A stretch of DNA of 64,000 nt from Phyllosticta citribraziliensis (GCF_038025025.1 NW_027117348.1:1364001-1428000); one strand, 5' to 3'. Shown: positions 2,821 through 38,200, counted from the first letter of the stretch. Made by a program: numbers and translations. The notes: generated from the letters alone by a model not told the origin.

Positions 2821-3489
2821 GCTGGCTATCGCTAGCGTTTGAAGACCAAGAGCGGTCTTCAAGGCAATCGCGACTTAGCCAGCAGCCTATCCAGGTCCAT
2901 CAGCTTGCCCCAGCAGAGTCGACGTGGTGGCGGCGCGGTCGCTGGGGGTGAAAATTGGCGGGTGTGGTGGTGAATTGGGGAGGTCAAGGGTTGAAGCTGC
3001 GGGGTCGTTCGCGTAGGAGCTCAGGTGGGTTGTGTGGCGAACGGGGCGGGCGTCGACTCGGGCTTGGGCGGGCGCGTCGCGTCGAGCGCAGTGGTTGGCA
3101 GCGGAGGCGAGGAGGGGGACTGGCTACTGGATTGATGGAGGGTTGACGTTGTGTTTGACACTGCAGAGGCTATGATGTGCCCTCGTGGGGAAGCCCTCTC
3201 CGCTGATCGACACGTCCTGCTAGCGCTTCACTCGTCACCATCTACTCGACGTACCTTTTGGCTTACCACCCGTCCACTCACATGGCTCTATCGCCGCCTT
3301 CTGTCCACACCACATCACACAGCGGCCCGCCTTTGGTCCAACTCGAGTAGGCCCGATATCAGACGACCTGATCTGACACCCTTGCCCTCTTGTGCGACGC
3401 TAGGTCAATTATCCACCTTATTTCGCCCTCTCTGGCGGCCCGCCTGGACCTCGCACATGTCATGACCATCATTCCATTCCCTGCTAATA

Positions 3490-4899
3490 CTACAACAGAA
3501 TCATGGCCAATCCACTCGCCAGTCCCGCCATAACCCACAACCACCCCAATATCGTCACGTTTGCAGCCACGCTGGGTGCTACTTTTGCAACAGCGCTGGT
3601 TGAAACAACGCCCGTCCCCGTATACGTACAACTGCTGCCACATCCATAGTCGTTTGGACAGCAACCCCCGCCCTGACTTGCTGCGCAACTCGACCATCCG
3701 TTGGCGCAGGTTCCCGTCGTCGAAGCAAAACTGACGCCCGATTGACCGGCTATCGTCACCGAATTCCCGTCAACGACTGTGATGCTGGCAGAAGCCGGAC
3801 ACGACGTTGAGTGACAATCGCGACCCACCCTGCAGCAGCCTCCCTGATAATATGCCGAGCACATGTAGAAACCAGTTGGACAGCCATTGATGCTTTCAAA
3901 GGGTGTGCCCGTAGTCCGAGACAACGAGCCTGAAGATTCCTCGCTGCCGCTCGTTGGGCGCAACGGCGCAACAGCACTGGCAGTGCTCGAGGCAGCATTC
4001 GTTGACGTAGGGGCGATTGTCGACGTGATTCTTGACGATGGTTCTGCGGACCGGGATTGGGTGGTTGCTGTTGTTATCGACGTGCGGCGTGAGGCTTGGC
4101 CGGTGGCCGTGTTGGAGAGAGTTGACGTCCTCGTCGTTCCCTTTTCCGTGATGATTGTCGTACTGATTGATGCCTTGAGGCCTACCACGAGTCAGTCAAG
4201 GATACGAGGGGCCACAAAGCTTGGCTGAAGAAGCCATCGTGTGCGGTACTCACATCCTTCAGAGACACAGTAGAAGCCAGGGACACAGCATCCGCCATTT
4301 GGACAGCTCGAGTATCCTGCCGAACTATCACAGTTGGCAACACCGCCACTGCAACTGCTTCCTTCTGGACAACATCCGACGTCTCCATTTCCAGTATCTT
4401 CGACAATCTGACAAGTTTCTGATATCCCGCAACAGGAATCGGGTCGGTCGATGTTGGTGCAGGCAGACGTCCCTGTGGGACACTGAAAGTCGCGCCTTTG
4501 AACTGCGCCGTGCCCGCCTTGTGGGAAAAACCTGGGAAAATTCCAATGACGGCCGTAGTCTTCCGAATGCTTCAACGCGGGCGGAAGCAACGTCACGTTG
4601 AGAAATTCGCCCTCCACGATGGCCACTTGGTTGGTATCCGCGCCGGCTTCAGCAGCAGCGAATTCCCAGTAGTCAAAGTAAAACTTTTGGCCTGGGTCGT
4701 CGCTCATTTTGCGCACGGCGCGGGGCACCTCGACGGCCATGCGCGCGCGTATTGCGGCATCACGCTTGACGAGGGCCTCTTGCTCGGGCCAGTGCTTTTC
4801 ATGTTGCGCCAAGTTCGAGGGCCATTCTGGTTCTGCTTGGGCGAGGTGAGCGGAGGCGAGAAGGAGACATGACGAGAGCGAAAGTAGAGGGCGCGGCAT
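3490..4899 (-). CDS. Secreted Cys-rich, S/T-rich GPI-anchored cell-surface protein, 2 exons
   Basis: Signal peptide MPRPLLSLSSCLLLASAHLAQA, KR/RR processing sites, repeated CP(T/E/N)G...CC motifs, a Thr/Ser-rich linker and a hydrophobic C-terminal GPI-like tail. Intron 4182-4253 joins ORFs 4192..5097 and 3490..4188. Confidence 0.85.
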
Positions 4900-5698
4900 G
4901 GAGATGGCGATTTCGGTCCCCGGCAGGCCTGTTGAGCGACCTGAAGCACGAGCAGAGGACAGGGCAAGGGTCGGACAGAGTCCAATCCGGCAGGTAGGAA
5001 TATGTAGATATGTACAAGTGAGTAACGTCAAAAGACTAGGACAGGGTGGGGAACAGCAAACAAAGACTATTTCTTCGGTAGCGCGGTCTGCCGTCAATGT
5101 CGGGCAGGGTTGCTGCGGAGCCCTGCACGGTGAGGATGGCTGGAAGGCAGCGTGGCGTGGCCGTAGTGCTTCCTGTGGTTTTTAATTCGAGAGGTTGGGC
5201 TGGGCGACGACAAGGCTGCTGACCGCTCATCATCTCACGGTGCCTGTCGCTGACATGACTTGTTGCGCGTCTGCATGGCTGTGAATGGCTGCTTCGTTTG
5301 TGCCCGATTACCACCTCGAGCGTTCCGTTGGACGGCAGACATGTGCCTCTGTGAGAGTTGGAAACGAGAGGTGTGTGGAGCAAGGATGGTGGATGGTCGA
5401 CGAACTGCGGTGACTGAAGGGCGGGAGCGGAGAAACGGGCGCACGGGCCTTTGCCGCGATCCAATACAGGGTTACCATGGCAAAACGGCCACCATTGCCC
5501 ATCTGCGTTGAATCCTGGGATTCGGCGAGGCTTTGCAGTGCGTTCGAAACACATCTTTCAAAGAAGGTATCTATCTTTGGGAGCATAACATGATGTTGTC
5601 TCAATATCAAACTCTGTGTCAAACCCCCATCACTGCACTCTCTCGAACAATACGTTCAGAGGAAAATAGCGCTATGAGATCTCGGGCAACTTCTGGTT

Positions 5699-6776
5699 TC
5701 ACTCTTCATCAAAAACCTTTGTCAAACGTCGCAACAGATCGACCGCTGCCACATGTCTAGGTCCTTTACTACTGCTCTCGCGATCCATCCGAAGCCTTGG
5801 GTACTCCTCCATTTCTGGTCGGATCTTGCTTGCCCGAGACTCTTCTGAAGCGGCTTTGCGCTCAATTCGTTCCCGTTCCATCTTGGTCCTGCTTGAAACT
5901 GCCTTGTAATGCTTGAGAATGATGCGATCTAGTTGACTTCGGGTATTCAAGTAGCCGCGCTCAAGCTCTGTATTTTCATGCGGAGGCAGACTGTTAGTTC
6001 TGGTTCCCGCAAAGCTCTCCTTCACACTCTCAATCAGCTGGAGAAGGTTGTTGATGTGGCTTCCGGCTTGATCCAGGGCTTCAGCGGTGATGGTTTGTGT
6101 TTGAGGGCGTGGAGTAGAAGATGAAAGATTGCCCGTTGCCACGAAGCTTTCATATATGGCAGATGGAGTTAGTAGTACTTCTGCAACAGTTCTGTAGCTA
6201 CAGCCACAGAGATGAGCGAACTTACGGCGTTTGATCTTCTTCATTGTGACGGGACAAGGACTCTTTGTATCTTGCCTCGGCTTCCTTCTCCTGAAGAATC
6301 AGGGTACTAATCGTCTGATACTTCTCCTCAGTAGCCTTGCCCTGACGCACGCTTAAAGCCAACTGCAAAGTCGCCGTAAGAAGCAACAGAGTGCTCTTCA
6401 GCTTCTCCAGCCTTGCATTCAAGACGTCGACATTGAGCTGTCGGAACGGCCAACTGAAGCTCCAGGTGTCGGGTTTCTGGTCCTCCCCGATTTCCACATA
6501 CATTTTACCGAAGATTTCTCTGCAGTCATTCATAGTCTCTTGGGCCGCAACGAGCGCCTCGGCGCGCAGCAATTCCTCAGCTCCGGCTTCTTTAAATACA
6601 TACCCAAGCTCTTTGATTGTCTTTGTCGTTTGCCTAACATCTTTTCCCAGGGCCGACATCCGTTCGTAACTCGTTGCTACACTGTCAGCATAGTCGTAAA
6701 TGGTCTTGGTCAGGCGGATTCCAAAATCGGCAACTGAAAAGGCGGAGGCGGCGACGCCAAAGGCCGCCGCGGCCAT
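5699..6776 (-). CDS. Protein with HeLo-like / fungal N-terminal domain of STAND proteins, 2 exons, ~333 aa
   Basis: The N-terminus MAAAAFGVAASAFSVADFGIRLTKTIYDYADSV...WPFRQLNVDVLNARLEKLKSTLLLL matches the Helo_like_N pattern (hydrophobic N-helix, then WPF...LE..KSTL.L). Intron 6147-6225 (GTAAGT...CTAAC...AAG) joins it in frame to ORF 5699..6244. Confidence 0.7.
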
Positions 6777-14496: not shown

Positions 14497-15470
<974 letters not shown>

Positions 15471-15628
15471 GTTGGCGATCGAGGTTAGGGTATTGCGCCG
15501 GTCGGCCTGGATGCGCGCAAAGTTGGATGTCAGCGGTGTGTTGCGATTGCGGGCGGGGTTGTTGAGAGGAACAGGAGGAAGGGCGGCATACGGCAACGGG
15601 TTGAATACGAGTTGGGCGGTGTTGGCGC

Positions 15629-15663
15629 GAGGCAGAGGCAGAGGCAGAGGCAGAGGCAGAGGC
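15629..15663. repeat. (GAGGCA)n microsatellite upstream of the Pab2-like gene
   Basis: About 6 tandem hexamers are directly visible. Confidence 0.9.
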
Positions 15664-16335
15664 TGATGAGGGGATGGAGTCGACGAGTGTGTGGGGAGAG
15701 CGGAAGTCGCGTCAAGCTCAAGCCAAGACCCGGGGCCGTGGATCCGAGCGTCGGCTAGCGCCGGTTAGCGCCAGACACCCCAACCCGCGTCGCCGTATCT
15801 GATATAAAACATGCCACTTTGTCTTTCGTCATGATTCTGATGAATTGAATGATGCCTTACAGGACTAATCATGGCTCGTGTCAGACAGATCAACCACCCT
15901 CCAAGGTCGTTATCAGATTTGATTGACTGCTATCAAAGCTCTACTTGGAGCTCCGCCATCTTGTGAAATCTGTATTTTTTACTTTTTATTTTTATTTTTT
16001 GGCCATCAAAGACACTGCAATGTTTGCTGCCTGGCTTACCCACCGTTTGCATGTCTTAAACACCAGCCCATCCATCCCACGTCAAACGACAGACGGCCGA
16101 CGTTGGTAGAAGCAGCCAGGGCAGTCAGGGACCAGGCAAGCGGAAGCGAGCACGCCCCACGCTAAACGCGGCTGGAGCCCGCAAACACCACGGCTCCTGC
16201 ATCCATAGCCAGCCCTAAATCCTGCACCCTTTGTCCTCTTTTTGCTCTGCGAAATTCCAACCCCAGACCCCTTGCAACCCGTGCATATTTGCTCCTCCTC
16301 TTTCATCATAGCCCGTCTTTCCCGACGTCACCGCC

Positions 16336-17105
16336 ATGCCCAACTACTCCGACGCCCAACAGCCGCTGCTCGACACGAGCAGAACCCTAACAAGCTTCGG
16401 CGACCAGCACTTTGGACGCGTCCCGTCGGCCTCGTCAGAGACGGAGATTGCGCGCAGCCGCCAGGCCACGCAGCGGTTCCTCAGCTCCAAGACGGGCCAC
16501 TACGCCGTCCTGCTGCTCGTCGGCCTGGACGTGTCGTGCATCTTTGCAGGTAGGCAACACACGCGGAAGAGCCAGCTCGAATGCTTCTTGTCCCCTGTTC
16601 TCCGTCCATGATTCTGAACTCGGGACTGTTGTAGACTTTGTGATCCGGCTCTTCCTGTGCGAGAAGCGGCTGTCCTACGGCTGGAACGATGGCCTCGAGG
16701 CGCTGGGCATTGTCAGCCTAGTCTTTTCCTGCCTCTTCATGGTCGAGTTGGTGGCGTCGCTATGGGCCTTTGGCTTGGAGTATGTCCCTCCAAAACTTTC
16801 TGCATTGACCGGAATGTCCATTCATGTCGATACTCACATGACCTAGGTACCTCAAAGCGCCTTTCCACATTTTCGACGCGCTCGTCATCCTGGCCAGCTT
16901 CATTCTCGACATTCTGTTGCGCGGCGTCATTGAAGAGGTCGCCTCACTCGTCATCGTCCTGCGTCTGTGGCGCATCTTCAAGATCATCGAGGAGCTCAGC
17001 GTCGGCGCCTCGGAGCAAACCGAGGACCTCGAAGCCCGCATCGAAGGCCTCGAGGACGAGAACCGCAGGCTGAGGTCCGAGGTCCAACGTCTCAAAGGTC
17101 GCTGA
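16336..17105 (+). CDS. Voltage-gated proton channel Hv1-like protein, 3 exons
   Basis: Four TM helices: S1 with Asp (LLVGLDVSCIFAD), S2 FSCLFMVEL, S3 FHIFDALVI, and S4 LRLWRIFKII (RxWRxxK). C-terminal coiled coil LEARIEGLEDENRRLRSEV, no pore domain. Introns 16550-16634 and 16780-16846. Confidence 0.9.
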
Positions 17106-17419
17106 ATCTTCTACAGATCGGCCAATGCAGATCTGGATGGGGAGGCTCCATGTGAGTGACTAGACCCAGAGTCCCGAACCCCTGAAGCCAGCGCAGGAGA
17201 AGTCGTCATAAGCTGCGACTTTTGCTGTCAGCTCCCTCACTGTAAATATGTACATAACAAGCACGCGAATGAGGTAATGGATTGGTAGGAGGAAAGGAGA
17301 CGGAGAAACACAACACAGCAGCGCTTCTTCAAATTCTCAGCACACAAACACGGAAAAGCTATCGGTTACCTTGTTACAGCCATGAATCTAGTCGAGTAAT
17401 CACACGACGACTCAAGTCA

Positions 17420-20400
17420 CAAGACCAGCATGTGCTTCTTGCGCACGCGCATCTGGCGGCTAGGTACTGGTGTGCATGTATAAAACCTGCTCCTTTTGCC
17501 CGACCTCCACTCCTTCCTCAACAACATGGCTACTATGGCCAAGCACCACAATGTCGATTCATCACATACTCCCTGCCGTTGGCTTCAACTTGCAAAAGAC
17601 TGTTCGTTTTGTCGTTTGTCTCCCCACGTCCCGTCGGTTTGCTCTCCCCCCCAACCCCACCACATCACTCAAACAACTCAATGGCACGCAGCATCAGTAG
17701 ACAACGCCGGTTCTCACCTCCCTTACAATGCCGCCAGGCTTCTCCATCCTTCATTCTATCTTCTCCTCTTGGCCCGACGTCAGGTAGCGCCGTTTCGCGT
17801 CCTGCGTCATCTCCAGAAACTCGATTACACACAGCCCACGGAAAAAGAACGAGAAGTGCGAAGGTGATTGAATTGCACCTGATGAGTCCACTGTTGTGGT
17901 CCGTCTTCTGCTGATGCAACAGAAACGCCTCAAAGTTCCCTCCTTTTATAGGCGGCTGGCAGGCGGATCTGCCGATATGTCCGCACGTTGCATGTGGTCC
18001 ACTGCTCCCTCGTGCCTCGAGTCTGATGAGGCTGTGCGTAGGCAGCTGTCGACAGTCACTCGGCATACTTTCATTGGCCGTTCAAGCTGCTGCTCAGCTA
18101 TAAATTGCTTGCGTTCTTCGCCTGGGACTCTCCTTTCTTCAACTGCTTCATTGTGCTGGCTTGGCTGGGCAGAACATACCACGAGGAGACGCCACTCGCG
18201 GTCGATCGCCCTTGTCGTCGCAATTGGACTTTGTTTTCTTGCCGTTTTTCTGCGGATTTTCGACTTGGAACGGACAGTCAGACAACCAGACTGCTGTGAT
18301 CCTCCCTAACTCTCAGCAGAACACTACAATGTGGATACGCAGCATTATCCAGCAATGCCACTCGACTCCTCCATCCAACGCCGTCACCGCCCTTCGCTGC
18401 TCGGAAAACCAAGCCAGGTCTGCCAAACACGAGGCACCAAGACCGAAAAAACAAAAGTGTGCCTCGAGGGCCAGATGCCACACCCAAGAAGTACAATTGC
18501 AAAGTGGAGGGCTCTGCGGGCTGGATGTGTCGCCGTGTTCGCCAGAGCAGAAGCAGCGCAGGTCTGGCTTTTATACATGACTCCACATCTCTGGAATAAG
18601 GCAGCGGTGTCAGAAGCTACTGCGGAGCTTGTGACACTCCCCAGCCACGGATCTTGTGCTTTTGCATGTGGTGGATAAGCTCGGACTCGGACCCTCAGCC
18701 GCGTGCGCGTTGCGGAGGTGTATATATGTCTCGCCTTTCTGGCCTGCTGTGCTGCTTCCTTGACACGCACATCAACGCCCATGATTTTGCGTTGGACAGA
18801 AAACGATTTTGCTCGAAAAATTGCACCGCACTGTTGTTCTGCTCTTTTTGCTGACCCTTCCCCTGCAGACCGAACACCACTGTCCTTGCTCTCGTCACTG
18901 ACACATGGTGATGGCCGTCAAGTCGGAACATTGATGCTGTTCATCACTCAATGACGCTGCCCGCCACTTCCTCCCTTCCCCCGCTCCAGGCGGCAACCAA
19001 GTGTTGTGGTAAGCCATAAATGCCACAAAGTAATTGGCAGATCGTGGGGCTTCCTCACGTTGGTATGCCAATGCAGTCAACGTGTCGCAGATACAGCAGA
19101 AGCAGGATCAACAGAAATCTGCGAGTTTTTATAGACGACCGACGAGTACATGCAGTTAGTACAAGCGAAAGTCACAAGCAAATTGCTCTCATGGCAGGAC
19201 CGCATGTGATACCCCTGAGCCCGCACCACTCCAGCAGTCCGACAGCGGCGTCTGGCGAGTATAAAAGTCCCGCTTCTTCGTCTGCTCTGTTTCTTGCTTC
19301 AGCACCTCTGCTTTGAGCATCGAGCGGGCTTTCCTGCACACAGGAGCCAGGATGACAAGAAATGGATGACTGTTGGTGGTTCGCCTGTGCGTAGTGGAAT
19401 CGACACCCACTACACTTTCCTGTTTGTTGTGCGTTTGCCTTCGCGCCTCCGTGGAAGAGAGAAGAGGCGAGAGTAGAAGAAATGAGTAGGAATCTGTCAT
19501 CGTCGATCAGTGATGCTGCTGGCCATCTCAGTCTACGATCGCTGGCCCAAATCACCATTGCATATCGCAGCAAACGCCTCCACTAAATAGCCATGCCGGC
19601 CTGGAAAGCAAATTCAGGGGCAGCGCAACGCAAAAAGCAGTCTTGACTGCCAACATCTCTGAAATACAAAGCGTCCGTTTCCCGATAGCTTTACTAGATA
19701 GACTCGCCGTGCCTATTGCAGAAGCAGGACACCTCTCCCTCCCTGGTCTTTTATACCTTTCCGCCTGGAGCAGCAGAAGGCGGACGGGTAGACCACCATA
19801 GACCACGCGTGTCAGCTGCCCACTTACGCCAACGCCTCCACATGACACCCGCGGCCCCATCTCTGCCTCTGCATGTGCAACTCTACTCCAACCCCGACTC
19901 CGCTCTATAAAACTTCACCTCGCCGCCTCATTTCTCTCCCACAGCCACAGTGCAACGCACAGCTTACCTGCAATGGACACACGAGACGAAATCGTCACTG
20001 TGCTGCTTGCCGCTTGCTCCGTTGGCAATGTGTTTTCTTGGGCTTCAGAACCCACTTCTTTTGCGGTCGCTGGCTGCGGGTGCGAGTCGCGGTGTTTGAC
20101 ATAGCTCTATGATTCAGGGGTTCGCTTGATGAAGGAGGACAGTAAGTCATGATGATAGTGTAGGAGGTATTTGTCGCTTGATGATGATTCCGCGCGTAGT
20201 ACAACCGCATATGGGACTAGATGCTCTTCGGTTTTTGGAATTCAACTCAAGTCAGCAGACAGACGTCAGTCACTCCAGCACATGCAACCCTCCACCTCAA
20301 CCCCTCGACGTCTATAAAAGAGCCTTTCCTTTCTATACTTTTTCTTCAACAGCGGCGGAAGCATCAGCGCAGACGAACAGCTTGATGAGTTTAACTATGC

Positions 20401-21400
20401 GGATTAGCCTTCGTTGAATTCACTGTCTTTCTTCTCCTTCTGCTTTTCTCCGACCAGTAAGTCATGGTGGTGCTGTAGGAGGTATTGTCGCGTGATGACG
20501 ATGATGATGTTCCCGGCTCGAGGATGGGCAGGGGCTCTGGCTTTCTTGCCCTGATTCAGCTGCCAAAATTCAGCAGACGTCAGCAGACAGACGTCATCCA
20601 GTTCAGCACATGCAACTCTCCATCTCAGCCCTCAACGCCTATAAAACCGCCATTCCTTTCCCGCTTCCTTCTCTCAACAGCAGCGGCTTTGCACTCTCAA
20701 CAGCGGCAATACTGTGTGCGAGTGCGAGAAGCGATTCACTTTGCTGTCTTTCTGTCACCTTCTGTCAGTGTCACTTCTTTCGCCTGCGTCGGCTGCGGCG
20801 GTTGACAGCGCACAGCTGCTAAGGAGTTCGGACGAATTATATGGTCAGTGAGAGCGAAGGTGCTGCAAAGCATCGAAGCATGATGACGTTGGAAAACACT
20901 ATTCCACTTCCCCACCGTGCCAGCCCCCAAAACACAGAAAAGCAGTCGCAGAAACGACTGCGAGACAGACGCCAACGGCGAAAAGTACTCGACCATGATC
21001 AAACCACACGACAATCCACGAGTGATCCTCTCATCTTTCTGTTGATGCAAAGGGCTGAAGCGCCCTGAGTTGCAGGAAGACAGAACCCGCAGATCGTGGA
21101 GTTTTTATAGCACGGCAGTCATTCAGGCAGCGGCAGTGTCACGAGCTTCCTGCTTCGTTCGTTTCTCGCAGGCATGTGTAGGTTCAGTCAGCTGCCATCC
21201 AGCTTGGAAGCATGTGTTCGACGCCCCGTGCTGAGGCCGCAGGCCTGAGGCCGTGGAGTATTGAGTATCGAGTATCGAGTATAAAACCACCTACCCACTC
21301 CCTTCTCTTTCTGTCTCCTCCAAGGGCAGTCAGCAAAAGGATCTCGTCCCTGAATCCAAACAGGCCACTGTACTGCGTGGAAGAAGTCGAAGTCCCACAA
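17420..21400. promoter_or_regulatory. Array of 13 TATA-box modules with GCATGTG/CACATGC motifs (candidate small-RNA transcription units)
   Basis: TATAAAA(+) at 17479, 19260, 19906, 20313, 20640, 21280; TATAAAT(+) at 18099; TATATA(+) at 18721. TTTTATA(-) at 17944, 18569, 19127, 19749, 21103. Nine GCATGTG/CACATGC copies. The function is inferred, not shown. Confidence 0.55.
20140..20790 (+). repeat. Diverged direct tandem duplication, ~320-bp unit
   Basis: CAGTAAGTCATG.TG.T...GTAGGAGGTATT at ~20140 and ~20455. GTCAGCAGACAGACGTCA...CAGCACATGCAAC.CTCCA.CTCA.CCCTC.ACG.CTATAAAA...TTCCTTTC...TCAACAGC.GCGG at 20251-20358 and 20579-20687. Confidence 0.9.
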
Positions 21401-21822
21401 GGCCTACTGCCGTGGTCTGGCTCTGACTCTGCCAGCCCTGATCAAGCCGCAGAAAGACGACGCGCTCATATTCCGACGTGTAGGAGGGAGGCTACACGGC
21501 AGCGCAAGGATGATTATCATCATCATTGACTAACAAAACACATGCATACATGCATGCTCGAGAGAAGAGAGATAGGATACGATGCTACAACCAACGACCC
21601 CCTCCCCCCTCTCCCCAGTCTATCCTTCCTCCACGAAGCCAAACACGCCCCAACGCCTCAACGCATGCACCGCATGTTCCAGCCAACTGAATACTCATCC
21701 CATTCCATAGAAAACCCATCCATTGTAACGCCAAGCAAGACTCCATTTATCCCTCCATCCGTCAAGTCCACGCAAGTAACCCACACACCCCCTGAGAAAG
21801 AAAAGATACTTCAGATACTGAA

Positions 21823-23790
21823 TCACGCCGCACCAGCAGCGCCCTGCGTCTCCGGCGGCGGCGCATCCGTCATCGACGCGTCGGCCGCCGGCCCCGTCGA
21901 TGGTGCAGCAGCGGTGATAGGAGCGTCGGCGTCAGGCTCGCCGTCTGCATCTGCATCCGCGTCGGCGTCAGCGTCTGCATCGGCACCAACATCTGTCCCT
22001 CCAGCAGCTGCAGCGTTGCCGGCGCCAGGGGCGTCGGGCATGGCGGTATCCGCAGCGGACGCTGCGGTCGCCGGAGGGGGAGCGGAGGGGTTGTGAGGAG
22101 GCAGAGTGGAGGCAGTATCCTGCTGCTGCTGTTGCGGCGCAGAGACAGGAGCAGCAGTAGCGGGATTCGAGGAACCGAGCTGGCTCTGCGCGTCCAACTT
22201 CTCATCACTGCCGCCGTCAACCTGCGGCACCTCGCCCTTAGCCTCAGCCTCGCGGCGCAAGCGCTCGCGCCTGATGCCCTCCGCAACAGCGACCTCGGCC
22301 TCCTCCTTCTCCAGCAACTTCCGCAAGTCGAGCATCTTGTGGATCTTGCTGACGAGGCTCTCGAACGCGTCGCACACGTTTGCCGTGGGGAGGCCGATCA
22401 GGTCCGGGATGCCGAGCTCGATGAGCGCCTGCTGGATCTTTTGCGTCTGGATCGTGCTCTTGGCCGTGCGCAGCTTGTGCAGGCGGTCGGACTTGAACGT
22501 GACGCCCGACGACAGCCGGTCGTGCTGCGTGACGCCGAGACGCGTCATGGCACGCGGCGTGAGCTGCCGTGGCGGCTGGCTCTGCTGTTGCGTCGTTTGC
22601 TGCGTCGAGGTGAGCGACGTGCGCTTGTTACCGACCTGGTTTGCCGGGTTGGAAATGGAGTCGCGGTGCGCGGCATTGCCTGCCTGGGGCGTCTGTTGTC
22701 CATTTTGTGCCTGGCTCATTTCGTTGGCCAGAGCTATCCGGCCGTTGCGCTTGCTGGAGCGGCTTTGCTGCAGAAGTTGGTTGAACAGCGACGTGAGGGC
22801 TGCGCTGGACTGGAACTGTGCGGTCGAGGTGTTTCCTTGGGACTGAGGAGCCGACAGGCGCTGGCGGACTTCCTCGCGCTCTGCGGCCAGTTTTTCGTAG
22901 TTTGTATTGATGCGTTGGAGTTCTGCCAGGAGATACTGCTCCTCGCGAATCTCATCTGCGGAGCGCTCCAGCAATGCAGCGGCAACCTTTTTGCGCTGCT
23001 TCTCACGATCCGGATCGAACTTGGTCAAAATCTCGTGGAGATGGAACTCGGCATTCGTCATGGACGCAATCGGCGTCTTGAGCTCCATCAGCTTTGCACT
23101 GATCTGATAGTACCTCGCCTTGATGTCCTCCATTGTCCGTGGTTTCGCCTGCACAGCAGCCACCGTGCCATCCTCTGGCTTGACATCCGGCTGCGCGGGC
23201 TGGAACTCGTAGCGATCCGCAATCACGGCCCAGCGGTGATAGTATTCCTTGACCGTCTCGACCAAATAATCCGTCTCTTCCTTGCTCCATTCGTCGCTCC
23301 GCAGATGCGCCTCGTACGTCTCGTCATCGTACTCCGGACCCTCGGGCTGAATATTGAACTTGGAAAACTCGTAGCTCGTCTCGAGGAGCGGATCGGCGTC
23401 GGGGCCAGCAGCAGCAGCGGCGGCAGCATCCGCGTCGCCATTTTCCATCGCAACATCACCATTAGCGTCTCTCGTCGCGTCCGGCTGCATGCGCCGCCAG
23501 TGCCGCAAGACCAGCCCGTCGTCGCGCGCGGGATTCGTAAAGGGCCGCATCACCCACTTGGCCGCGGGGCCTTTGTTGGCGCCCCATCGCCGCTTGGGCT
23601 GGTAGCTTTTGCCTGCCTCGACGACCGACACGGGCGGCGCGCGCTCGCCGTACAGCGCTTGCACCTCGCGATTGATTCCTGTGATGCGCTTGCTGGTTGC
23701 CGTCTTTTGCTTTTTGGCTGGCGGTGGTTTGGGGAGGTTTTCTCCGGGCTGCAGGCCCATGAGGTCGCGGGCGTCGTTCATGGATGCCAT
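21823..23790 (-). CDS. SWC4: SWR1/NuA4 complex subunit Swc4/Eaf2 (DMAP1 homolog), intronless
   Basis: ITGINREVQALYGERAPP, WVMRPFTNPARDDGLVLRHW, SANT region FSKFNI...WSKEETDYL...RWAVIADRY...RTMEDIKARYY. ATG at 23790. Confidence 0.95.
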   Translation of the reverse strand: MASMNDARDLMGLQPGENLPKPPPAKKQKTATSKRITGINREVQALYGERAPPVSVVEAGKSYQPKRRWGANKGPAAKWVMRPFTNPARDDGLVLRHWRRMQPDATRDANGDVAMENGDADAAAAAAAGPDADPLLETSYEFSKFNIQPEGPEYDDETYEAHLRSDEWSKEETDYLVETVKEYYHRWAVIADRYEFQPAQPDVKPEDGTVAAVQAKPRTMEDIKARYYQISAKLMELKTPIASMTNAEFHLHEILTKFDPDREKQRKKVAAALLERSADEIREEQYLLAELQRINTNYEKLAAEREEVRQRLSAPQSQGNTSTAQFQSSAALTSLFNQLLQQSRSSKRNGRIALANEMSQAQNGQQTPQAGNAAHRDSISNPANQVGNKRTSLTSTQQTTQQQSQPPRQLTPRAMTRLGVTQHDRLSSGVTFKSDRLHKLRTAKSTIQTQKIQQALIELGIPDLIGLPTANVCDAFESLVSKIHKMLDLRKLLEKEEAEVAVAEGIRRERLRREAEAKGEVPQVDGGSDEKLDAQSQLGSSNPATAAPVSAPQQQQQDTASTLPPHNPSAPPPATAASAADTAMPDAPGAGNAAAAGGTDVGADADADADADADADGEPDADAPITAAAPSTGPAADASMTDAPPPETQGAAGAA

Positions 23791-25292
23791 TTCGCCGGCG
23801 AGCGTGTGAGTCGAACGAGCGGAGCGAGTGCAGACGAGGTGGACGATCGAGGCGAGGAGAACGATCGGGACGGAGCAGAAGTGCAGGAATATCTGCAGTG
23901 GCAGCGGCGGGGGAGAGGACGCGATGGGAAGAGTCGGTCGGCGGGTGCAGTGGGTTGGTTGAGCGAACAATTGCGGCGTGCGGAGCGGGAGTGATGTTGC
24001 GGCTTGCGGAGCGTTGGAGCTAGGAAGGGCAAGCCAGCCACAGAGGTGCGAGGATGTGGGACGTGCGCGTATACATGAAAGCACTACCACCGCAGCACCG
24101 AGCGACTAACTACCTGGGTGTGTCCTTGATAAAATGTTTGGGGCCAATATCTTACAAGACGGTGATATCGAGGTCATTGAGTACGTACGGCTGAATTGAA
24201 AGCTAGTAAAGAAGCTAGGCAGTCATTAAAAGTAGTAAAAGTAGTGCTCTACACCTCCATATCTAGGTAGCCAACCATCCACCACAACGACACGACCAGC
24301 AGCATTACCCCTACCCGCAAGAAGACATGTCAAATCCCGCAACAAGAATACCACAAATGCCATCGACACGTCCGCAGACATTCCATCGTTTATTGCTGAG
24401 GTGAGTGCCTGCCCCTACTCGCCTCTCTCCACACACTCCCTCCGTCTCCTTTCCACGCTTCAACTCTTCTTCCATAACCCATTGATCCACCTGTCCGCTC
24501 CCATCTCAGTATGCCCGTACCGTCGTCCATTACCCCTGCCTCCAGCCACGCACCTCACCCCACCCCATCCCGCCGCAAAACGCCAGGGGAAAAGAGAAAT
24601 CCGTCACTCCAGCACCGGTCGGGCAGTCAGCCACGCTGTCACCGCATGCCGTCGTTGTGGGCAAAACAGCACGCTGCCGTCGTTGCTGCTCCGCGAGGCA
24701 AGATCGCCCAGCAGGCCGCTTTATACCACCATAGGATGAGAGGGTGAAAGAGCAAAAGGTCAAGGCCACGCACCTCCGTCCATTGGTGCATATCTGCTTT
24801 CTTCTCGGCCAAAACCGGCACGCGCGACTCTGACAGGAGTTTGGTAGAAGATGTGCTGGTGCAGCTAGCTCTTTGATTGCTTCGGTGCTCGACGACTGGA
24901 CGACTCGACAGGAGTCAACGGTTCGACGACGACGAGATGTTGCATCGACGCGAATGAAGAGAGAAACGGAAAAAGAAAAATCAGAAACAAAAAGTGTACA
25001 GAAGGACAAACGGGGGGATGTGCCACCATCACATCACGATGGACGTCACTCGCTCACTCCAGTGGCTCACTGACTCACAACAGCCTGCCTGTCTGCTCGT
25101 CTCATCATCATTGCCCTGCTGCTGCTGCTGCTTCTGCGGCACGACGCATCAAAACAACCGACCGCAAGAAAAAAAGGGGGGAAGACGAAAGGGCGAAGAA
25201 TGCAAACGTAAGTAATTTGAAATGAAAACTTCATAAAAAAAACCGGCGAAAGGGGGGAAAGGGACGAGCTCAGCAAACAAAAAGAGGCCCGA

Positions 25293-32291: not shown

Positions 32292-35200
32292 GATGGTCGT
32301 CGAGAAGCTTGAGGAGAGCGGATGTCAGGAATCTGCGGGCGGACGGGCTGGAGTCAGTCTCTTTCTACCAGGGACAAGACAAGACAGGACAGGGGAGCGG
32401 GTGGAGCGACGCACGGTAGAGCTTGTTGTGCTGACGACGCCCCTCGGGAATAAATGGGGATGCGGTGGTGAAAGAGATGTTGTGGGATGAGCGAGCGGCG
32501 ACGAGTGGGAGAGGTAACGAGAGAGAAATAGGCCTTGGACGGGGGGCCAGTGGTTTGGCAGGAGCTGCTGGATTGCGACGGAGCAGCAGGCAGAGCGGGA
32601 GGGAACGAAGGTATTTTGATCAAGGGCGCGGGCAAGAAGGAGGCGGGAAAATTAGGGGAACCTGCAGCCGGCGGGCATCGAGCAATGTGGCCCGGGCGAC
32701 GCGACGCCCGCATCCCATCCCATCCACGTCGAGTGGGTGGCTTGCCCGAGTCGTGCATTCCAGGCGACGCTGCGTCTACCGCAACTCACTCTCACTGCGA
32801 GCGGATGGGGAGAGTCCTGTTCGGTCGACGACGACGACGACGACGACGGAGAACCATCAATGGCCACGGTTGCTGCCACTGCTGCAATTCTCGCCAGCCT
32901 CCAGCGACACCACATGGTCCACTGTCGACTCCCCCCATCGACACCACTCTCGTGCCCTGTAATTACGAGGCCCTCGACGCACGCCCCTATCCAAAAAAGG
33001 CTCCAGAGAAGCTGCTAGCACGGCGCCGCTACCGGTACGGCGCCGGCCATTGGCCAATCCGCATGGCGCAAGCCCAGGGCATCGTGTTGACCGGCAGGGC
33101 ACCCAGGCGCGGGTGGGGGAACAGTGCTTGTTTGCGCCAGCCATCCTTGGTGTGCCGTTGGTGCAATCCTCTGCCCGCCCGCCTTCGTGCCGCTGCCATG
33201 CTGCCGCCTTGTCGGTTGCATCGCAAACTGCGTTTTCCAAGCGCAGTAGCTCCAAGTTTCTTGCGGCCTGGCTCAATGGCGATTTGACGACGATGAAAAT
33301 TCTGGAGGCGTGAATCTCGCCCACGGCCGTCTGGTGCCGTGAAACGCTGCCGGGGGCGGTGGCTCGGTCGACTGGCTCGACTGGCTCGACTGGCTACGCC
33401 TAATTTCGGTTTGGCCGCCCCGTTGCTTGACCAGTGTCTATCTGCTGCACCATCCTCATCTCCGCCAGACCCATCTGCCATGGCGACTTTGCAGGGGGCG
33501 GTCGCAGTAGCTGCCAGTGGCATTTCTTCGGCAGCCTCAATCATGGACGTGTGGTGTGGGAGAGTGCGACGAGGCGGCGTCACGGTCGAGCATTCTCGCG
33601 CGCTTCTGGCTCGCAACGGCGCGCTCCCAGGACCCGTCGCCCGGGTCGGTGCAGTCGTCAGGCTGGCCCAAGGTTTGCGAGAACGGCCGGCGTCCAGGCC
33701 ATCATTCTTGGGTTTTGCATTGCACTGGCTGGCTGGTTTCTTCTTTCTTTTTGCAGCCAGCGCGGCGTTTCATTTTGTTTGGTTTCGTTTGGTGTCGCGT
33801 GGTCGGTGGTGAGAGTCGTGGCCGTTACAACGCCGCGCTGGGCTGGACCATGGCTGGCGATACATTAGACAGCATGCCCAGCGCACCCTGCAAGTGGTTT
33901 AGCGCCTTCGGCTACGAGGCGGCCTGGAGTCCCGCCCGTCGCCCGTCGCCCGTCACAGTCAGCACCCATCCCGTCCGTCCTGCCTCCCACTTCTCGCGGC
34001 ACATCCATGTCCTCAGCCACCCCGATTCTGCTCTGATTCCACATCTGTTCAGTCGCCACCGCGAGCTCGCCTCCTCCATGTTCGTCGGTTCGGGAGCCAC
34101 CGAGGCCAAGCTTTGCTGCAAACCTGGAATTCCCATCGTCGAATGACGTCCCACCTGCCTGCGTCGAAACCGTCTCGGACTTACGATTCCGTCCCCTACT
34201 CCAGGCACGGGCACGGGCACTGTTGGCACAGACTCATCTTCTCCTGCTGCTCCAGTTGATCCTGCCTCGACTAAGCAGGACGCGTTTCACGTCGAAAACA
34301 CATCGGCATTGCTGTCCATGCAAGGTCGTCAGGAAACCTGCACCTCAAGCAAGCCAAGCCTTATCGCTGTCCACTCACGCCGTTTGCTGCCCGCCTTGAT
34401 TTTCCGTGGGCCATATCACTCTTCACGTGAGGGGTACGGTACACACTGTCGCTCTCCTTTTTGTCCTCCCTTTGCCACTGCTCGTACTCACTGCATCTAC
34501 GAGCCTCGGCTCTCAAATCAATCAACGCACTGCCACAGGGCTCGGGAGCCACAAATACTCCTCTTCTCCCTACGGACGTCTCCGGCAAATCATGGCCCTT
34601 GCGAGTCTAGTCGGCAATTCACAAGGCTTGTTTTGCACGGAGCCGAGTCCTTGCTCTGTCCATGCGGCTCAGCAAACCACCAACTGCATGCTCAGCTGAG
34701 CGGCCAACACGCAACAATGCCTGTCTTGGTGACGCTGCCAGCTGATCTTTCGATAGTCTGTCTCGCCCGTCGATTGCCCCCATGACGGTCGACCGGTCTG
34801 AAAGTGGAGGCATCGTTGTTGACGCCGTGTTCGATCGTAAAGGTCATGAAAGCCATGACCAAGGTCGTGTTGGCCCATCAATCGCCTCGTACAACCATCA
34901 AAATCTGCATCTCAGACTATCAACGCACTATTCTGAGGCTAGAGCTCAGATCCTTGTCGGCGGTTCCGCCGTATTCCTTAGCATTTCTGATTCCAGGTTC
35001 TCGGGTTGTCGAGCCTCGGGGGGGTCGCACAGGGTCAATTGCACTCAATTTGCCACGGCCGTTTCTGTGCCACAGATTTCCTGACTAAGAGGCCGTCGTC
35101 GAGAGGCTCTCGTCGGCATCCCGAGCCGCCAGCTCACCAGACCGTTGGCGGACCTTGCCTCGCAAATCCTGGGTCTGCCTGCAGGGCCTCTATCTGAGAC

Positions 35201-38200
35201 TATATGCTGGGCAAAGGCTCTCACCTGCTGTCTTGTTTACCGCTCGCTGACGCTGCAAGTTTAATGATCCCCATCTCACCCACATCGCAGACATCGAGCC
35301 GCCAGCCAGATCCCCGACCCCCGCGAGCGCCACCTCCATCAGGGGCTCATCGAGCAAGTCGAGTCGCACCGCGTCAAACCTCTAGAGCAAACTTGGCGTC
35401 GATGATGCAGAATTGCAAAAGCGACGACGACCGCAGGAGTGCGATGCCGGCTGCACCACCTGCGCCTCTCATCGAGGGAGTGTCTGCGCCTGGCCTGCTC
35501 GCGCCAGTCGAGCCCGTCGTTGTCGACATCAGCCCATGGCCTGGCGGCCTTGTGCCTGGCAAGAATTGCCGAGTCGTCTTCTGAACCGGTGCTACGCGAC
35601 AACTGCGCTCAAGTACCATTTTGTCCTGTCCCTCAGGCCTGCGCATCATCGCGCTCCGCTGCGAAGTTTGCTAGGCTGCAATCATCATGGTGGTTGCTTT
35701 GTCAAACCTGGATCTGGACGACGACAACCACATCATTACGACATTGCCGTCTCCATCCCGGCGGCTGGCCGCTTATCCTGTGCCCCCTTCCATTTCTATT
35801 TTCTGTCACATTTCACACGCTGTTATTATTTTGGTTTCCAGTCGGCAAGCCATGGCCGTCTGGTGCGTCGGCCGGCTGGCTGCTGCCATCCATGCTGCTA
35901 CGATAGAGGCGCCGCACGCACGAAGCAATCAGCCTGGCCAAAATCCGGAAGCGAGAAAAAGCACAAAAAGCCCGTCCAATTGACGTGCATACAGACAGAC
36001 TGGTGGACTGGAGCATGCGGCGACGACGGCTCCTCCAACCGCTTGCACTACCGCTCCTCGAGCCGCAGCGACCCTGGCCCCTCATTGCCGTTTCAACTGC
36101 CCTGCAGCGCTGTGGTGGATGTGTGTGTGCCTGCTTCAGCTTGCGCTCTTCTCTCTGTCGCTCTGTACTCCCAGGCGCGGCTGCTGCACCTTCCACCGTT
36201 TCTGTTGACGTGCCGCTCGTCAACCAGGTCGACGACGTCGTCCGTCTCCCCCTCCTTCATCGCCAGGCCCCTCCTTGGATTCTGAACACCCCTCACTCCT
36301 CACGTCACATAGATCCTCATTCCGTGACGGCCGGCATCTAGTCCCGCCGCTCCGCTTCCGCTTCCGCACCCGCCCCTCCCTTTCCTCTCCCAGGATCTCC
36401 TCTTCCTCCATCTGCTCATCGTTTTAGCGCTCCCGCTTTTCCGCCGCACAGCATTGACGCGCATCTTGCTTGGTGCATATGGACTCACATCTCTTTCTAT
36501 TTTTCACCCGCTGGTCCCCACTTCCCACTGCTCCTACTGCTCCCTTGCCGGCCTCGAGCGCTGGCAACTTGCAGATTGCAGCCGCGGCTGTTGGCCGTCT
36601 TTTGACACGTCGTTTTTCTTTGACAAAGTTTTTTTCTTTTTTTCCCTTTTGCTTCCTCACTCCTTCCCTCTGCATGCGTACATACATACCCCAGACCCCT
36701 CCCCTCCCTTCTCTTTCCTTCCCCTCTTACCCCCGGCCGCCTTCATGCGCGTCAACGTCGCCCCGCCTCTCCGGCGTCAGCTTCCGCTCTTCCCCATACC
36801 ATCTCACTTATCCGCAGCAGTTTGCCTACTGCCTGCCTGCCTGCTTGCACCGCGTGCAACCTCTGATCTGGCCCGCCCTACCCTGCTGCTTTGTGTGCGC
36901 GCGTATGTTGGTTTGTATCATGCCATCTAGGGGGGCCGGGCAGGGTTAGTTGCTCACTTGCTTGCGATCGGTATCGCATCGCAGATGCTGCTCGATGGAC
37001 TGTCGGACCAGATCGCATCGGAGCTTGGACCGCACACTACTGGATGAGTTGAGATGGATGGAAGGGCTGCTGGGATGTGGGCGGGACGCGAGAGCGGAAG
37101 CGTAGGGCGGTGTTCTGTCATTTGCATGCGCCTTGCTGACTGGCTGGCTGGCTGGCTGCAACTGTGGTTGCCCCGGCAGCTCTGGCGGCTCTGCTTTGAC
37201 GCAAGACGGGGTGGTGCGTTGGTGACGTTGTTGACTGATGACGGTCGTCGTCGTGGCCAGGGTCAGGGCCAGGGTTGACTGCCAGAGCAACGATGGTGGC
37301 GAACCATGTAACAGGAGAGTGTAGAGCTAGGCAGGTAAGTCAGAAATAGTGCTATCCGTGTAGTTGCTTGGACTGTATGTACGCCCTGCTACGAGTGCTT
37401 GATCTTCGCACTCTGTTTGACCGGTCTGCTCTGTTCTGCTCTGGTCTGCGCCGTCTTTGATCTCAAGCTCGCAGTTTGGTCTGGCTTGGTTTGTGCCTCG
37501 CGGTCAGCCAGTCGGTCGTCCAGTTCGGCCCGCTACGTGCGAGGGCACGTACGGACATACGGGCCTCTTTACCACGCACTTCTACCTAAAGAAATAAGAG
37601 GCTTGTGGCGTTTTAGATGCTAGCATTCAAACATTAAAAAATGAAAATACCAGGCTCATGTGCGTTGTGCTCTAGAGTCTAGAGCTTGGGGCTTGCCTCA
37701 AGATTCGAATGGAAGCGCACCTACTTACGCGTCTGGATTTCCGCTCTTGTAGTCGTGTGTAAAGTAGAGCGTGGGTAAGGAGGGCCTGTGATGGAGAGAA
37801 GACGACAGGAGACGCAGGTGTGTCTGAAGGCGTGGTAGGTGTGGGTTGTAGAATTAATTGGACTATGTAATGAACTCCGCAGTTCAAATTCTGCTATCCA
37901 TTTTGGCCGGGCAGGTAAATGGGCAGACAGACGAGCAGACAAGCAGCACGCGCGAATCCCTTTTTTTTCAAGTCATAGTGGAAGATATTTATCCATATCT
38001 ACAATATCCACTTCCTGTTATATCAGATATCTTCCATATCTCACCTAAATCAAACCAACATCTATCCAATCACTCATGCTATCATACAAACCCGACGGAC
38101 CCCTCTACCTCCCTACTTCCTACCTCCTTCACCTCCTCCACTCATCCCCCTGACTTGCATCAACCCATAACAAACACCGCCACCTCACCGCCCAAGAGCT

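Follow-up and report, generated by a model that had tools for sequence, protein, structure and literature searches.

In the 21U-RNA (piRNA) clusters of C. elegans, each mini-gene has its own upstream motif, and the disiRNA loci of Neurospora are ordinary genes with overlapping antisense transcripts and small RNAs of about 22 nt. The 21U-RNA clusters pack autonomous mini-units together on both strands, and the upstream motif is conserved where the transcribed sequence is not. The disiRNA loci show convergent transcription over a short part of a gene-rich region in a filamentous ascomycete (PMC3764098). The divergent promoters of Aspergillus histone genes set core promoters back to back about 130 to 180 bp apart with an upstream element between them (PMC6900853), and fungal lncRNAs and natural antisense transcripts are short, weakly expressed, spliced, non-coding Pol II products that are often mutually antisense (PMC3951366, PMC8113380). 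At the level of a single motif, CACATGC is the Ino2/Ino4 bHLH site, UAS_INO, in S. cerevisiae (PMC6068829; PMC2626603), and an Ino4-like bHLH protein of A. niger is described as binding CASSTG and not CATGTG (PMC6962311).

A 4.7-kb gene-free gap in Phyllosticta citribraziliensis, lying within the 64-kb stretch of DNA that was analyzed (the window), has something in common with each of these systems. It holds an array of 13 near-perfect TATA-box modules (Table 1). Core promoters stand back to back as in the histone genes, but here five such pairs follow one another about every 620 bp, no protein-coding genes are flanked, and the transcribed parts are neither conserved nor coding. Promoter geometry in the array is convergent, which would give the convergent transcription of disiRNA loci, but the units have dedicated TATA/E-box modules. 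The resemblance to 21U-RNA clusters is one of logic only, since the array has units of about 0.4 to 0.6 kb, at least one of them spliced, with TATA plus E-box. Fungal lncRNAs share the traits listed above with the array, but no periodic cluster of motif-identical promoters came up in the literature searched on them. Yeast UAS_INO is the identical 7-mer and likewise works in both orientations ahead of a core promoter, but the yeast site has an AAA extension that the array E-boxes lack, and the array is without phospholipid genes. Literature searches on Neurospora convergent transcription, filamentous-fungal bidirectional promoters and lncRNA, and Phyllosticta transcriptomes turned up no account of such an array, and we found no named equivalent in the literature and families compared.

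With middling confidence, we propose that some 13 short Pol II units make up the array, non-coding and each driven by a TATA box, and that they form a co-regulated, lineage-specific cluster in which some units are convergent. The products would be non-coding, or would at most carry unconserved micro-ORFs, and every unit would be driven by one compact promoter in which (T)GCATGTG lies 26 to 115 bp upstream of (C/G)TATAAAA. The E-box-type element is presumably bound by a bHLH-type activator, and in plus-strand units a C/T-rich tract after the box may act as the initiator. Growth of the cluster was probably by tandem duplication of a unit of about 620 bp, composed of a promoter gap of about 150 bp, flanked by a box on either side, and a body of about 465 bp; later selection would have kept the two promoter motifs and the spacing, and the transcribed bodies would have changed until they no longer resemble one another. 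Since each body has an inward-facing promoter at either end, the same 0.4 to 0.5 kb is likely to be transcribed in both sense and antisense.

Table 1. Coordinates of features in and around the array (positions in the window)
Feature	Start	End	Strand	Details
Left flanking gene, Hv1-like	16336	17105	+	Three exons; both runs have contigs that skip introns 16548-16632 and 16780-16846
Gene-free interval	17106	21822		Stop codon of Hv1-like gene to stop codon of SWC4; whole array inside
Module 1	17428	17485	+	E-box GCATGTG 17428-17434, TATAAAA 17479-17485; gap 44 bp; pyrimidine 0.72 downstream
Divergent pair 1	17944	18105		TATAAAA(-) 17944-17950, E-box 17990-17996, TATAAAT(+) 18099-18105
CTGCTTCTGC	18547	18556	-	19 nt downstream of minus-strand box 18569
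Divergent pair 2	18569	18727		TATAAAA(-) 18569-18575, E-box 18664-18670, TATATAT(+) 18721-18727
CTGCTTCTGC	19096	19105	-	29 nt downstream of minus-strand box 19127
Divergent pair 3	19127	19266		TATAAAA(-) 19127-19133, E-box 19202-19208, TATAAAA(+) 19260-19266
62-nt intron	19494	19555	-	X1 contig joint 19493->19556; CT..AC on plus strand, GT..AG on minus
CTGCTTCTGC	19718	19727	-	28 nt downstream of minus-strand box 19749
Divergent pair 4	19749	19912		TATAAAA(-) 19749-19755, E-box 19871-19877, TATAAAA(+) 19906-19912
Alignable (paralogous) units u19906, u20313, u20640	19840	20900	+	The only alignable units in the array
Tandem module	20279	20319	+	E-box CACATGC 20279-20285, TATAAAA 20313-20319
Tandem module	20607	20646	+	E-box CACATGC 20607-20613, TATAAAA 20640-20646
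Adapter-tagged contig end	20690		+	44 nt after TATAAAA 20640-20646; faint hint of a possible 5' end
Divergent pair 5	21103	21286		TATAAAA(-) 21103-21109, E-boxes 21172-21178 and 21210-21216, TATAAAA(+) 21280-21286
Right flanking gene, SWC4/DMAP1	21823	23790	-	Pfam SANT_DAMP1_like (E 8.6e-28) and DMAP1

The concentration of boxes is the most conspicuous property of the gap. By exact motif count, the window contains 15 copies of TATAAAA, 11 of them between 17479 and 21286, against an expectation of 0.68 for the whole window; a total of 15 was reached in none of 100 shuffles. The array likewise holds 12 of the window's 19 copies of the 6-mer TATAAA, at a GC content of 0.527 compared with 0.58 in the flanks; low-coding stretches elsewhere, across about 59 kb of the window, contain just 7 TATAAA and lack divergent pairs. 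TATAAAA starts at 17479, 19260, 19906, 20313, 20640, and 21280 on the plus strand and at 17944, 18569, 19127, 19749, and 21103 on the minus strand; TATAAAT at 18099 and TATATAT at 18721, both plus, complete the set. A sequence-only reading of this DNA had named these positions and strands correctly, and its five divergent pairs are borne out, with measured gaps of 155, 153, 133, 157, and 177 bp. Opposite TATA boxes about 100 to 200 bp apart, the geometry of a divergent Pol II core-promoter pair, thus occur five times. Facing boxes are separated by 465, 470, 405, 489, and 463 bp, successive plus-strand boxes by 620, 623, 538, 646, 407, 327, and 640 bp (a period of about 620 bp), and the base at -1 is C or G in all 13 modules. 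Divergent pair 5 also contains (GAGTATC)x3.9 at 21256-21282. Elsewhere in the window, three more modules of a similar kind lie at 45484-46839; a comparison of 45000-47500 with the array gave no alignable similarity (best score 29, null about 26).

The genes on either side are those named earlier, Hv1 and SWC4. The Hv1-like call comes down to Ion_trans matches below threshold and a coiled coil at the C terminus, and SWC4 is identified by its two Pfam domains, its protein being 96% identical to one from Phyllosticta citrichinensis. An SWC4-based scan of metagenome contigs returned 10 loci (27 to 56% identity, GC 0.48 to 0.51), none with a TATA array after the gene or an Hv1-like gene nearby; these loci are too remote to be informative on synteny.

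A second motif accompanies every box. GCATGTG or its complement CACATGC lies 26 to 115 bp upstream of the box in 13 of 13 modules, and the array has 10 of the 17 copies in the window, as the core-site rule for UAS_INO (CACATGC upstream of a promoter) would have it. This common E-box is what co-regulated promoters would show, and a single factor may serve all of them. The phospholipid-biosynthesis targets that mark the UAS_INO regulon are missing, with no coding gene downstream of any module, and a full-text literature search for the exact heptamers turned up nothing fungal except yeast Ino2/Ino4. Another sequence, TGCATGTG, has six copies in the array and none in the rest of the window.

The two strands differ in what follows the box. 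Over +8..+57, the pyrimidine fraction of plus-strand modules is 0.60 to 0.76 and reaches at least 0.66 in seven of eight, compared with 9% of random 50-mers; in minus-strand modules it is 0.40 to 0.62, and none of five reaches 0.66. The earlier claim of a C/T-rich tract after every TATA therefore holds for the plus strand and fails for the minus strand. Judged from these letters, plus-strand modules look like complete fungal core promoters, and minus-strand boxes are less certain; lacking the tract, they could be promoters of lower strength, or else T-rich signals for the 3' ends of plus-strand units. The recurrence of CTGCTTCTGC downstream of three minus-strand boxes was also seen as first noted, accounting for three of its five window copies, 19 to 29 nt away.

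RNA is present in the array. Two runs (X1 and X2, the latter smaller) were used as contigs, which show no start, end, strand, or level; the reason for treating both runs as RNA is that these contigs skip the flanking genes' GT..AG introns. Stretches without contig cover, namely 17172-17839 and 15836-16169 (0.66) in X1 and most of the array in X2, were read as no finding. Inside the array, X1 contigs cover 18456-18799, 18804-19132, and 19956-20651, and X2 contigs cover 18182-18323 and 21102-21242. One X1 contig (depth 22.1, 75 letters on its shorter side) skips a 62-nt minus-strand intron downstream of the minus-strand box at 19749, where splice-site and branch-like letters can be read in the sequence. 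Contig cover and this intron support the part of the earlier inference that has the stretch transcribed; that each box fires is something we infer. Mean word depth, a poor measure, is 6 to 36 for contigs wholly in the array and 688 to 6577 for those of the neighbors, and nothing in the array depths points to strong expression.

Of the contig ends, those at 19956 and 20690 lie 50 nt past the start of a plus-strand box, and those at 18182 and 18804 about 83 nt past one. Both runs also have adapter-tagged ends, like that at 20690, at 16236/16237, which is 100 nt upstream of the ATG of the Hv1-like gene. Among the contig pieces listed, at least four ends lie 6 nt or less from a box (17486, 19132, 20651, and 21102), and these fit a 3'-end role at least as well as a promoter role. 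One possibility is that the array comprises eight plus-strand units arranged head to tail, and that the "minus-strand boxes" are (T)TTTTATA, T-rich 3'-end or termination signals rather than promoters. The restriction of the C/T tract to plus-strand modules, the very regular spacing of plus-strand boxes, and the position of the E-box nearer the plus-strand box in most divergent pairs all agree with this. So do the bodies of the first three units, which stay pyrimidine-rich on the plus strand for about 300 to 360 nt after the plus-strand TATA and are purine-rich only in their last 60 to 120 nt, and the X1 contig that starts at 18804 and ends at 19132 within TTTTTATA, a sequence described as a yeast 3'-end signal. 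However, the RNA spliced at 19493/19556 has GT..AG ends on the minus strand only and lies just downstream of box 19749. Like the plus-strand boxes, those on the minus strand have C or G at -1, and all of the latter are perfect TATAAAA; three share CTGCTTCTGC at a similar distance, and an element serving purely as a terminator would have no reason to match the promoter heptamer exactly. We consider a one-stranded array unlikely.

It is also unlikely that the locus is a dedicated source of dsRNA or small RNA, in which bodies of about 465 bp would be transcribed from both ends and the RNAs would pair to give small RNAs or local chromatin marks. Tandem units 19906, 20313, and 20640 are not convergent, the weak minus-strand modules speak against balanced transcription of two strands, and sense/antisense overlap within any single unit is predicted rather than seen. 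Its attraction lies in the five convergent promoter pairs 405 to 489 bp apart, in the minus-polarity RNA (the intron) from a body that carries a complete plus-strand module as well, and in contig 18804-19132, which reaches beyond the site where the facing minus-strand unit is expected to start. The bodies are unconstrained and unstructured, as expected if only two-strand transcription matters, and Neurospora provides a precedent in which convergent transcription leads to disiRNAs and DNA methylation (PMC3764098). A more specific version, which we hold to be improbable, is a dsRNA factory of convergent-promoter cassettes of about 465 bp under one E-box factor, feeding an RNA-silencing or chromatin pathway; facing TATAAAA boxes would then double as promoter and T-rich stop, with one role on each strand. 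If true, it would be a logic-level fungal counterpart of animal small-RNA clusters, with the promoter motif conserved and the transcribed sequence free, and the modules at 45484-46839 would belong to a genome-wide family.

Returning to the reading we favor, a cluster of short non-coding units, the only units that can be aligned are u19906, u20313, and u20640. Repeat matches among them include D2 (65 nt at 83%) and D4 (32 nt at 88%), and u20313 and u20640 are 80% identical upstream and 72% identical from TATA to +60; their bodies, at 51% and 49%, are inside the shuffle range. These figures favor constraint that acts on promoters and not on the bodies. The E-box-to-TATA segment is kept in all three, and the bodies have diverged through indels that are not multiples of three. 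Remaining unit pairs could not be aligned (scores of at most 30, compared with 26 for the best of 60 shuffled pairs) and share only motifs, as do the five divergent promoter gaps, which gave no alignment beyond them. The description of the array as an expanded family therefore stands for three units and not for the rest.

Tests of coding potential agree with the sequence-only reading that the units are probably non-coding and have no peptide in common, the latter upheld by unit alignment and ORF comparison. A codon-usage log-odds scan of 17100-21800 stayed at background, mostly below 9, with peaks of 13.8 at 20400 and 10.3 at 21550, whereas exons of the Hv1-like gene and SWC4 (the latter outside the training set) scored 10 to 27.7. 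None of eight array ORFs had a Pfam match above cut-off. Of the two ORFs covered by a homologue search, that of 75 aa found no protein homologue and that of 113 aa found one marginal match (E 6e-4) among 1.84 billion representatives. Exact look-ups of nine array ORFs matched no entry, and neither did that of the SWC4 ORF, the positive control, which makes them uninformative. Leaders show no depletion of ATG (45 versus 44). ORFs of at least 100 aa number 9, more than the 2.45 of a first-order model (0 of 300 simulations) but no excess over a second-order model (4.97; P 0.06). Lipopeptide-pheromone genes were rejected: C-x-x-x ends occur in two first ORFs, one only after splicing, with no peptide in common.

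Fast-evolving micro-protein genes of about 10 to 60 aa, perhaps secreted, hydrophobic, or lipidated, could in principle give signals too weak for these tests. The excess of long ORFs over the first-order model would suit them, as would good start contexts with hydrophobic N termini in some first-ATG ORFs (for example, 34 aa at 19656(-), 43 aa at 19973(+), and 113 aa at 17526(+)) and a 27-nt stretch (D6) that is in-frame in both u19906 and u20640 just before the stop. We nonetheless find this explanation quite improbable given the absent codon-usage signal, the lack of families and of clear homologues for the ORFs searched, first-ATG ORFs of 5 to 19 aa in 6 of 13 units, and C-x-x-x ends at about chance (11 of 243 stop-terminated frames). 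The three paralogous units have no conserved ORF, their indels break frame, and u20640 has no ATG at the matching place.

Structural RNAs and repeats gave no better account, and the array remains, as first described, without a match to a named RNA family or repeat in the Rfam and TRF scans. Rfam matches, tRNAs, and C/D-box snoRNA candidates all numbered zero in the array, and 16 folds had z-scores of -0.66 to +2.77, with no stable RNA fold. Telomerase RNA or another long structured RNA was accordingly rejected. TGATGA is enriched, with 14 copies in the array and 37 in the rest of the window; snoRNA genes were still rejected for want of a C box, D box, and stem together. Pol III units were rejected because contigs cross T4-T5 runs in the bodies and one RNA is spliced, and a RIP relic was rejected on TpA/ApT of 0.60 and (CpA+TpG)/(ApC+GpT) of 1.36. 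TRF detected no long-period repeat in the array, tandem or dispersed sequence repeats were not found there, and Pfam detected no transposon domain in the array ORFs tested. A functionless relic with background transcription only, be it solo LTRs, some other old repeat, or the decaying promoters that dead genes left behind, would explain bodies with no detectable constraint and low contig depths, but is highly improbable beside perfect heptamers in 11 of 13 boxes and 10 E-boxes amid unalignable surroundings, regular spacing, and the absence of a RIP signature, of repeats, and of transposon domains in the ORFs tested, although an LTR match is conceivable.

If the boxes of this proposed non-coding cluster fire, the array would be a compact natural case of selection keeping promoters, as two heptamers and their spacing, with the transcribed sequence left to drift. 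Any function may reside in the RNAs or in transcription as such, and the array would bear on what is selected in fungal non-coding loci, be it the act of transcription, antisense pairing, or the RNA itself. It would also bear on the birth of new transcription units and genes by local duplication. To our knowledge, core-promoter rules have been little studied in Dothideomycetes, and the array offers 13 naturally occurring versions of a single minimal inducible promoter (E-box, TATA, initiator) from a member of that class. Should the module mark a genome-wide family, it would define a regulon invisible to gene annotation.

We judge it about as likely as not that the interval is a cluster, specific to its lineage, of short non-coding units that Pol II transcribes from TATA-dependent promoters under common control. 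This best reading draws on signs of selection on the promoters, on the lack of coding or structural signal, and on spliced RNA being present. The array lies within 4.7 kb that hold no gene, from the stop codon of an Hv1-like gene (17105) to that of SWC4 (21823), the latter so identified because the ORF at 21823-23790 on the minus strand carries SANT_DAMP1_like and DMAP1 domains (Pfam). This ORF is 96% identical to its best match, in Phyllosticta citrichinensis, 87% to one in P. capitalensis, and 66-73% to the next ones, in Botryosphaeriaceae, which places the source among Phyllosticta-like Dothideomycetes.

A motif recount bore out the dense, paired TATA array of the sequence-only reading, box coordinates and counts included: five divergent pairs are present, 11 of the 15 TATAAAA copies in the window fall within 17479-21286, and one copy each of TATAAAT (18099) and TATATAT (18721) bring the array to 13 boxes. 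The window total of 15 compares with 0.68 expected and was reached in 0 of 100 shuffles. For the shorter TATAAA, 12 of 19 window copies are in the array, and the other seven are scattered over ~59 kb with no divergent pair among them. Divergent gaps measure 155, 153, 133, 157, and 177 bp, convergent gaps (the bodies between facing boxes) 465, 470, 405, 489, and 463 bp, and successive plus-strand boxes are spaced by 620, 623, 538, 646, 407, 327, and 640 bp; position -1 is C or G at all 13 boxes. At 21256-21282, 3.9 tandem copies of GAGTATC adjoin and enter the TATAAAA at 21280.

All 13 boxes are preceded, at a distance of 26 to 115 bp, by the E-box heptamer GCATGTG/CACATGC, and in the divergent pairs a copy sits between both boxes. 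The heptamer is at chance level over the window as a whole (17 copies versus 13.09 expected; at least 17 in 19 of 100 shuffles), with 10 of the 17 copies within 17428-21545, and its extended form TGCATGTG occurs six times in the array and nowhere else in the window. The heptamer is identical to the consensus bound by Ino2/Ino4, a bHLH pair of yeast (PMC6068829); however, the array has no phospholipid gene, and in A. niger the Ino4-like factor binds CASSTG (PMC6962311). An Ino2/Ino4-type link would thus be only a lead.

Local alignment of all 78 pairs of oriented units, judged against the best of 60 shuffled pairs (score 26), limited genuine similarity to the units downstream of the boxes at 19906, 20313, and 20640 (a score of 90 for the one pair that does not overlap). 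The three highest scores (486, 326, and 64) were inflated by overlapping extraction windows, and four other pairs, at 27 to 30, barely exceeded the best shuffled pair. The "expanded family" of non-coding units put forward from sequence is borne out as to the lack of coding signal and the presence of RNA; as an alignable family it shrinks to these three. Among them, a repeat finder recovered two repeated stretches, one of 65 nt (83% identical) and one of 32 nt (88%), and the alignment of the three units conserves the part from E-box to TATA and not the remainder: between the 20313 and 20640 units, identity is 80% over the upstream 75 nt (best shuffle, 71%), 72% from TATA to +60 (best shuffle, 68%), and 51% and 49% over the bodies, inside the shuffle range. 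Because the five divergent gaps show no mutual alignment beyond the motifs and TRF found no long-period repeat in the array, the ~620-bp periodicity lies in where the motifs are placed and not in the sequence itself. Heptamers and spacing kept in every module amid unalignable sequence point to selection on the promoters, as do three young paralogues that retain the promoter and lose the body. The best-conserved body part of the 19906 and 20313 units is the 32-nt element (20140-20171 and 20455-20486), which opens with a consensus 5' splice site (CA/GTAAGT) followed by TGATG-type repeats and GTAGGAGGTATT; GTAGGAGG recurs at 21481. No splice at either copy was seen among the contig pieces listed for two sequencing runs, X1 and X2.

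These runs come from one organism, their RNA label is a guess, and their assembled contigs were compared with 14500-24500. In these contigs, seven canonical introns of the neighboring genes are spliced out (e.g., 16548-16632 and 16780-16846, in both runs), so X1 and X2 contain spliced RNA. Within the array, a 62-nt intron, whose AG is preceded at 14 nt by a branch-like CTGAT, lies ~160 nt past the point where the minus-strand unit at 19749 should start, and this splice is the only direct indication of Pol II transcription on the minus strand.

Contigs and intron in the array, and similar modules elsewhere in the window
Feature	Position	Strand	Remarks
X1 contig	18456-18799		inside array
X1 contig	18804-19132		inside array
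X1 contig	19956-20651		inside array
X2 contig	18182-18323		inside array
X2 contig	21102-21242		inside array
X1 contig	20690 to 23933		extends beyond array
Intron, 62 nt	19493 joined to 19556	minus (GT..AG; CT..AC on plus)	one X1 contig, depth 22.1
Module	GCATGTG 45409, TATATC 45484, C/T tract	+	ORF-poor stretch
Module	CATGTGC ~30 bp ahead of TATAAAA 46202	+	ORF-poor stretch
Module	CACATGC ~35 bp ahead of TATAAAA 46833	+	ORF-poor stretch

Assembled contigs cannot reveal starts, ends, strands, or levels, and their ends serve as weak hints only. Measured from where a plus-strand box begins, ends 19956 and 20690 lie 50 nt downstream and ends 18182 and 18804 ~83 nt downstream; end 20690 is adapter-tagged, as are ends 16236/16237, 100 nt ahead of the Hv1-like ATG. 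Four of the 13 interval ends listed (17486, 19132, 20651, and 21102) are at most 6 nt from a TATAAAA/TTTTATA box, a lower bound given 48 further contig pieces beyond those listed. Upstream transcripts may thus terminate at the module they next meet, through a roadblock or a 3'-end signal. The same four ends also feed an alternative in which TTTTATA ends each plus-strand unit and the array runs purely head to tail on that strand with T-rich terminators; given the minus-strand splice, which speaks against it, we regard this alternative as unlikely. Mean depth, a poor measure of level, was 6 to 36 for contigs wholly inside the array versus 688 to 6577 on the neighbors, giving no sign of strong expression of the array in the X1 and X2 samples. 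The 141-nt X2 contig that begins at 21102, with an adapter at 21242, fills precisely the space separating the two boxes of the fifth divergent pair, where RNA would be unexpected with outward firing from both; it could stem from the 21280 box, started in reverse, or be the 3' end of the unit starting at 20690.

The C/T-rich tract that the sequence-only reading placed after each box is a feature of plus-strand modules, in which the pyrimidine fraction over +8..+57 is 0.60 to 0.76 and at least 0.66 in seven of eight (9% of random 50-mers get there), but not of minus-strand modules (0.40 to 0.62; at least 0.66 in none of five). The bodies of the first three units are pyrimidine-rich on the plus strand over most of their length. 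Three minus-strand boxes are followed, 19 to 29 nt on, by the decamer CTGCTTCTGC, which accounts for three of its five exact copies in the window. In 17703-21727, AACGCC has nine plus-strand copies and no minus-strand copy (~1.1 expected per strand) at variable offsets from the boxes, a bias that probably reflects how C-rich the plus strand is. Local duplication probably built the array, and its units would be partly convergent; that they act as a source of dsRNA or small RNA is likewise an unlikely account in our estimate.

A codon-usage log-odds scan, for which six long ORFs from other parts of the window (SWC4 not among them) served as training set, scored 10 to 27.7 over SWC4 and 13 to 26.7 over the Hv1-like exons, and over 17100-21800 it gave background only (peaks of 13.8 at 20400, 10.7 at 20450, and 10.3 at 21550; elsewhere <10). 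First-ATG ORFs after the 13 boxes encode 113, 19, 83, 9, 57, 40, 5, 34, 43, 10, 75, 11, and 7 aa. A search for homologues of the 75-aa ORF found none, and the 113-aa ORF drew a single marginal match (E of 6e-4, to a 2389-aa protein) from 1.84 billion representatives searched; leaders show no ATG depletion (45 versus 44 expected). Counting against the non-coding reading, and on the side of micro-protein genes, the array holds nine ORFs of at least 100 aa versus 2.45 by a first-order model (nine reached in 0 of 300 simulations), or versus 4.97 by a second-order model preserving stop-codon frequency (P of 0.06). With no codon signal, no frame or start common to all three paralogues, and no Pfam family at cut-off in any of eight array ORFs, a coding cluster was rejected, and micro-protein genes seem to us improbable, more so than the preceding alternatives. 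Elsewhere, low codon-usage stretches at 33001-39151 (6.2 kb) and 57601-61251 (3.7 kb) lack TATAAA and may be intron-rich or atypical genes.

Rfam-family, tRNA, and snoRNA genes also failed as candidates: Rfam gave no match, whether over 15000-24000 with E as high as 1 or at the gathering score over the whole window, and the array yielded no tRNA and no C-box/D-box/stem candidate, despite enriched TGATGA. Fold stability of eight transcribed intervals on both strands was not above that of shuffles (z-scores of -0.66 to +2.77). RIP indices of the array are normal, so a RIP relic was rejected, and a functionless relic, set against the signs of promoter selection, is the least probable reading and a very improbable one.

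Since three more modules occur at 45409-46839, at spacings of 718 and 631 bp, the module may mark a dispersed family; no alignable similarity between these modules and the main array was found. An imperfect tandem repeat at 45220-45477 lies directly upstream of the module at 45484; it has ~5-6 copies of the 16-nt unit GCCCGTCTGGTGTGAG and variants up to 45477, is interspersed with three E-box heptamers, and may be a protein-binding repeat.

No array of this kind is described in the literature searched, supplements and subscription journals aside. In its workings it would resemble the bidirectional promoters of fungi, and it may also resemble the Neurospora loci of convergent transcription. Nematode 21U-RNA clusters combine a conserved upstream motif and free transcribed sequence in dense mini-units on both strands, and the array is similar to them in logic.
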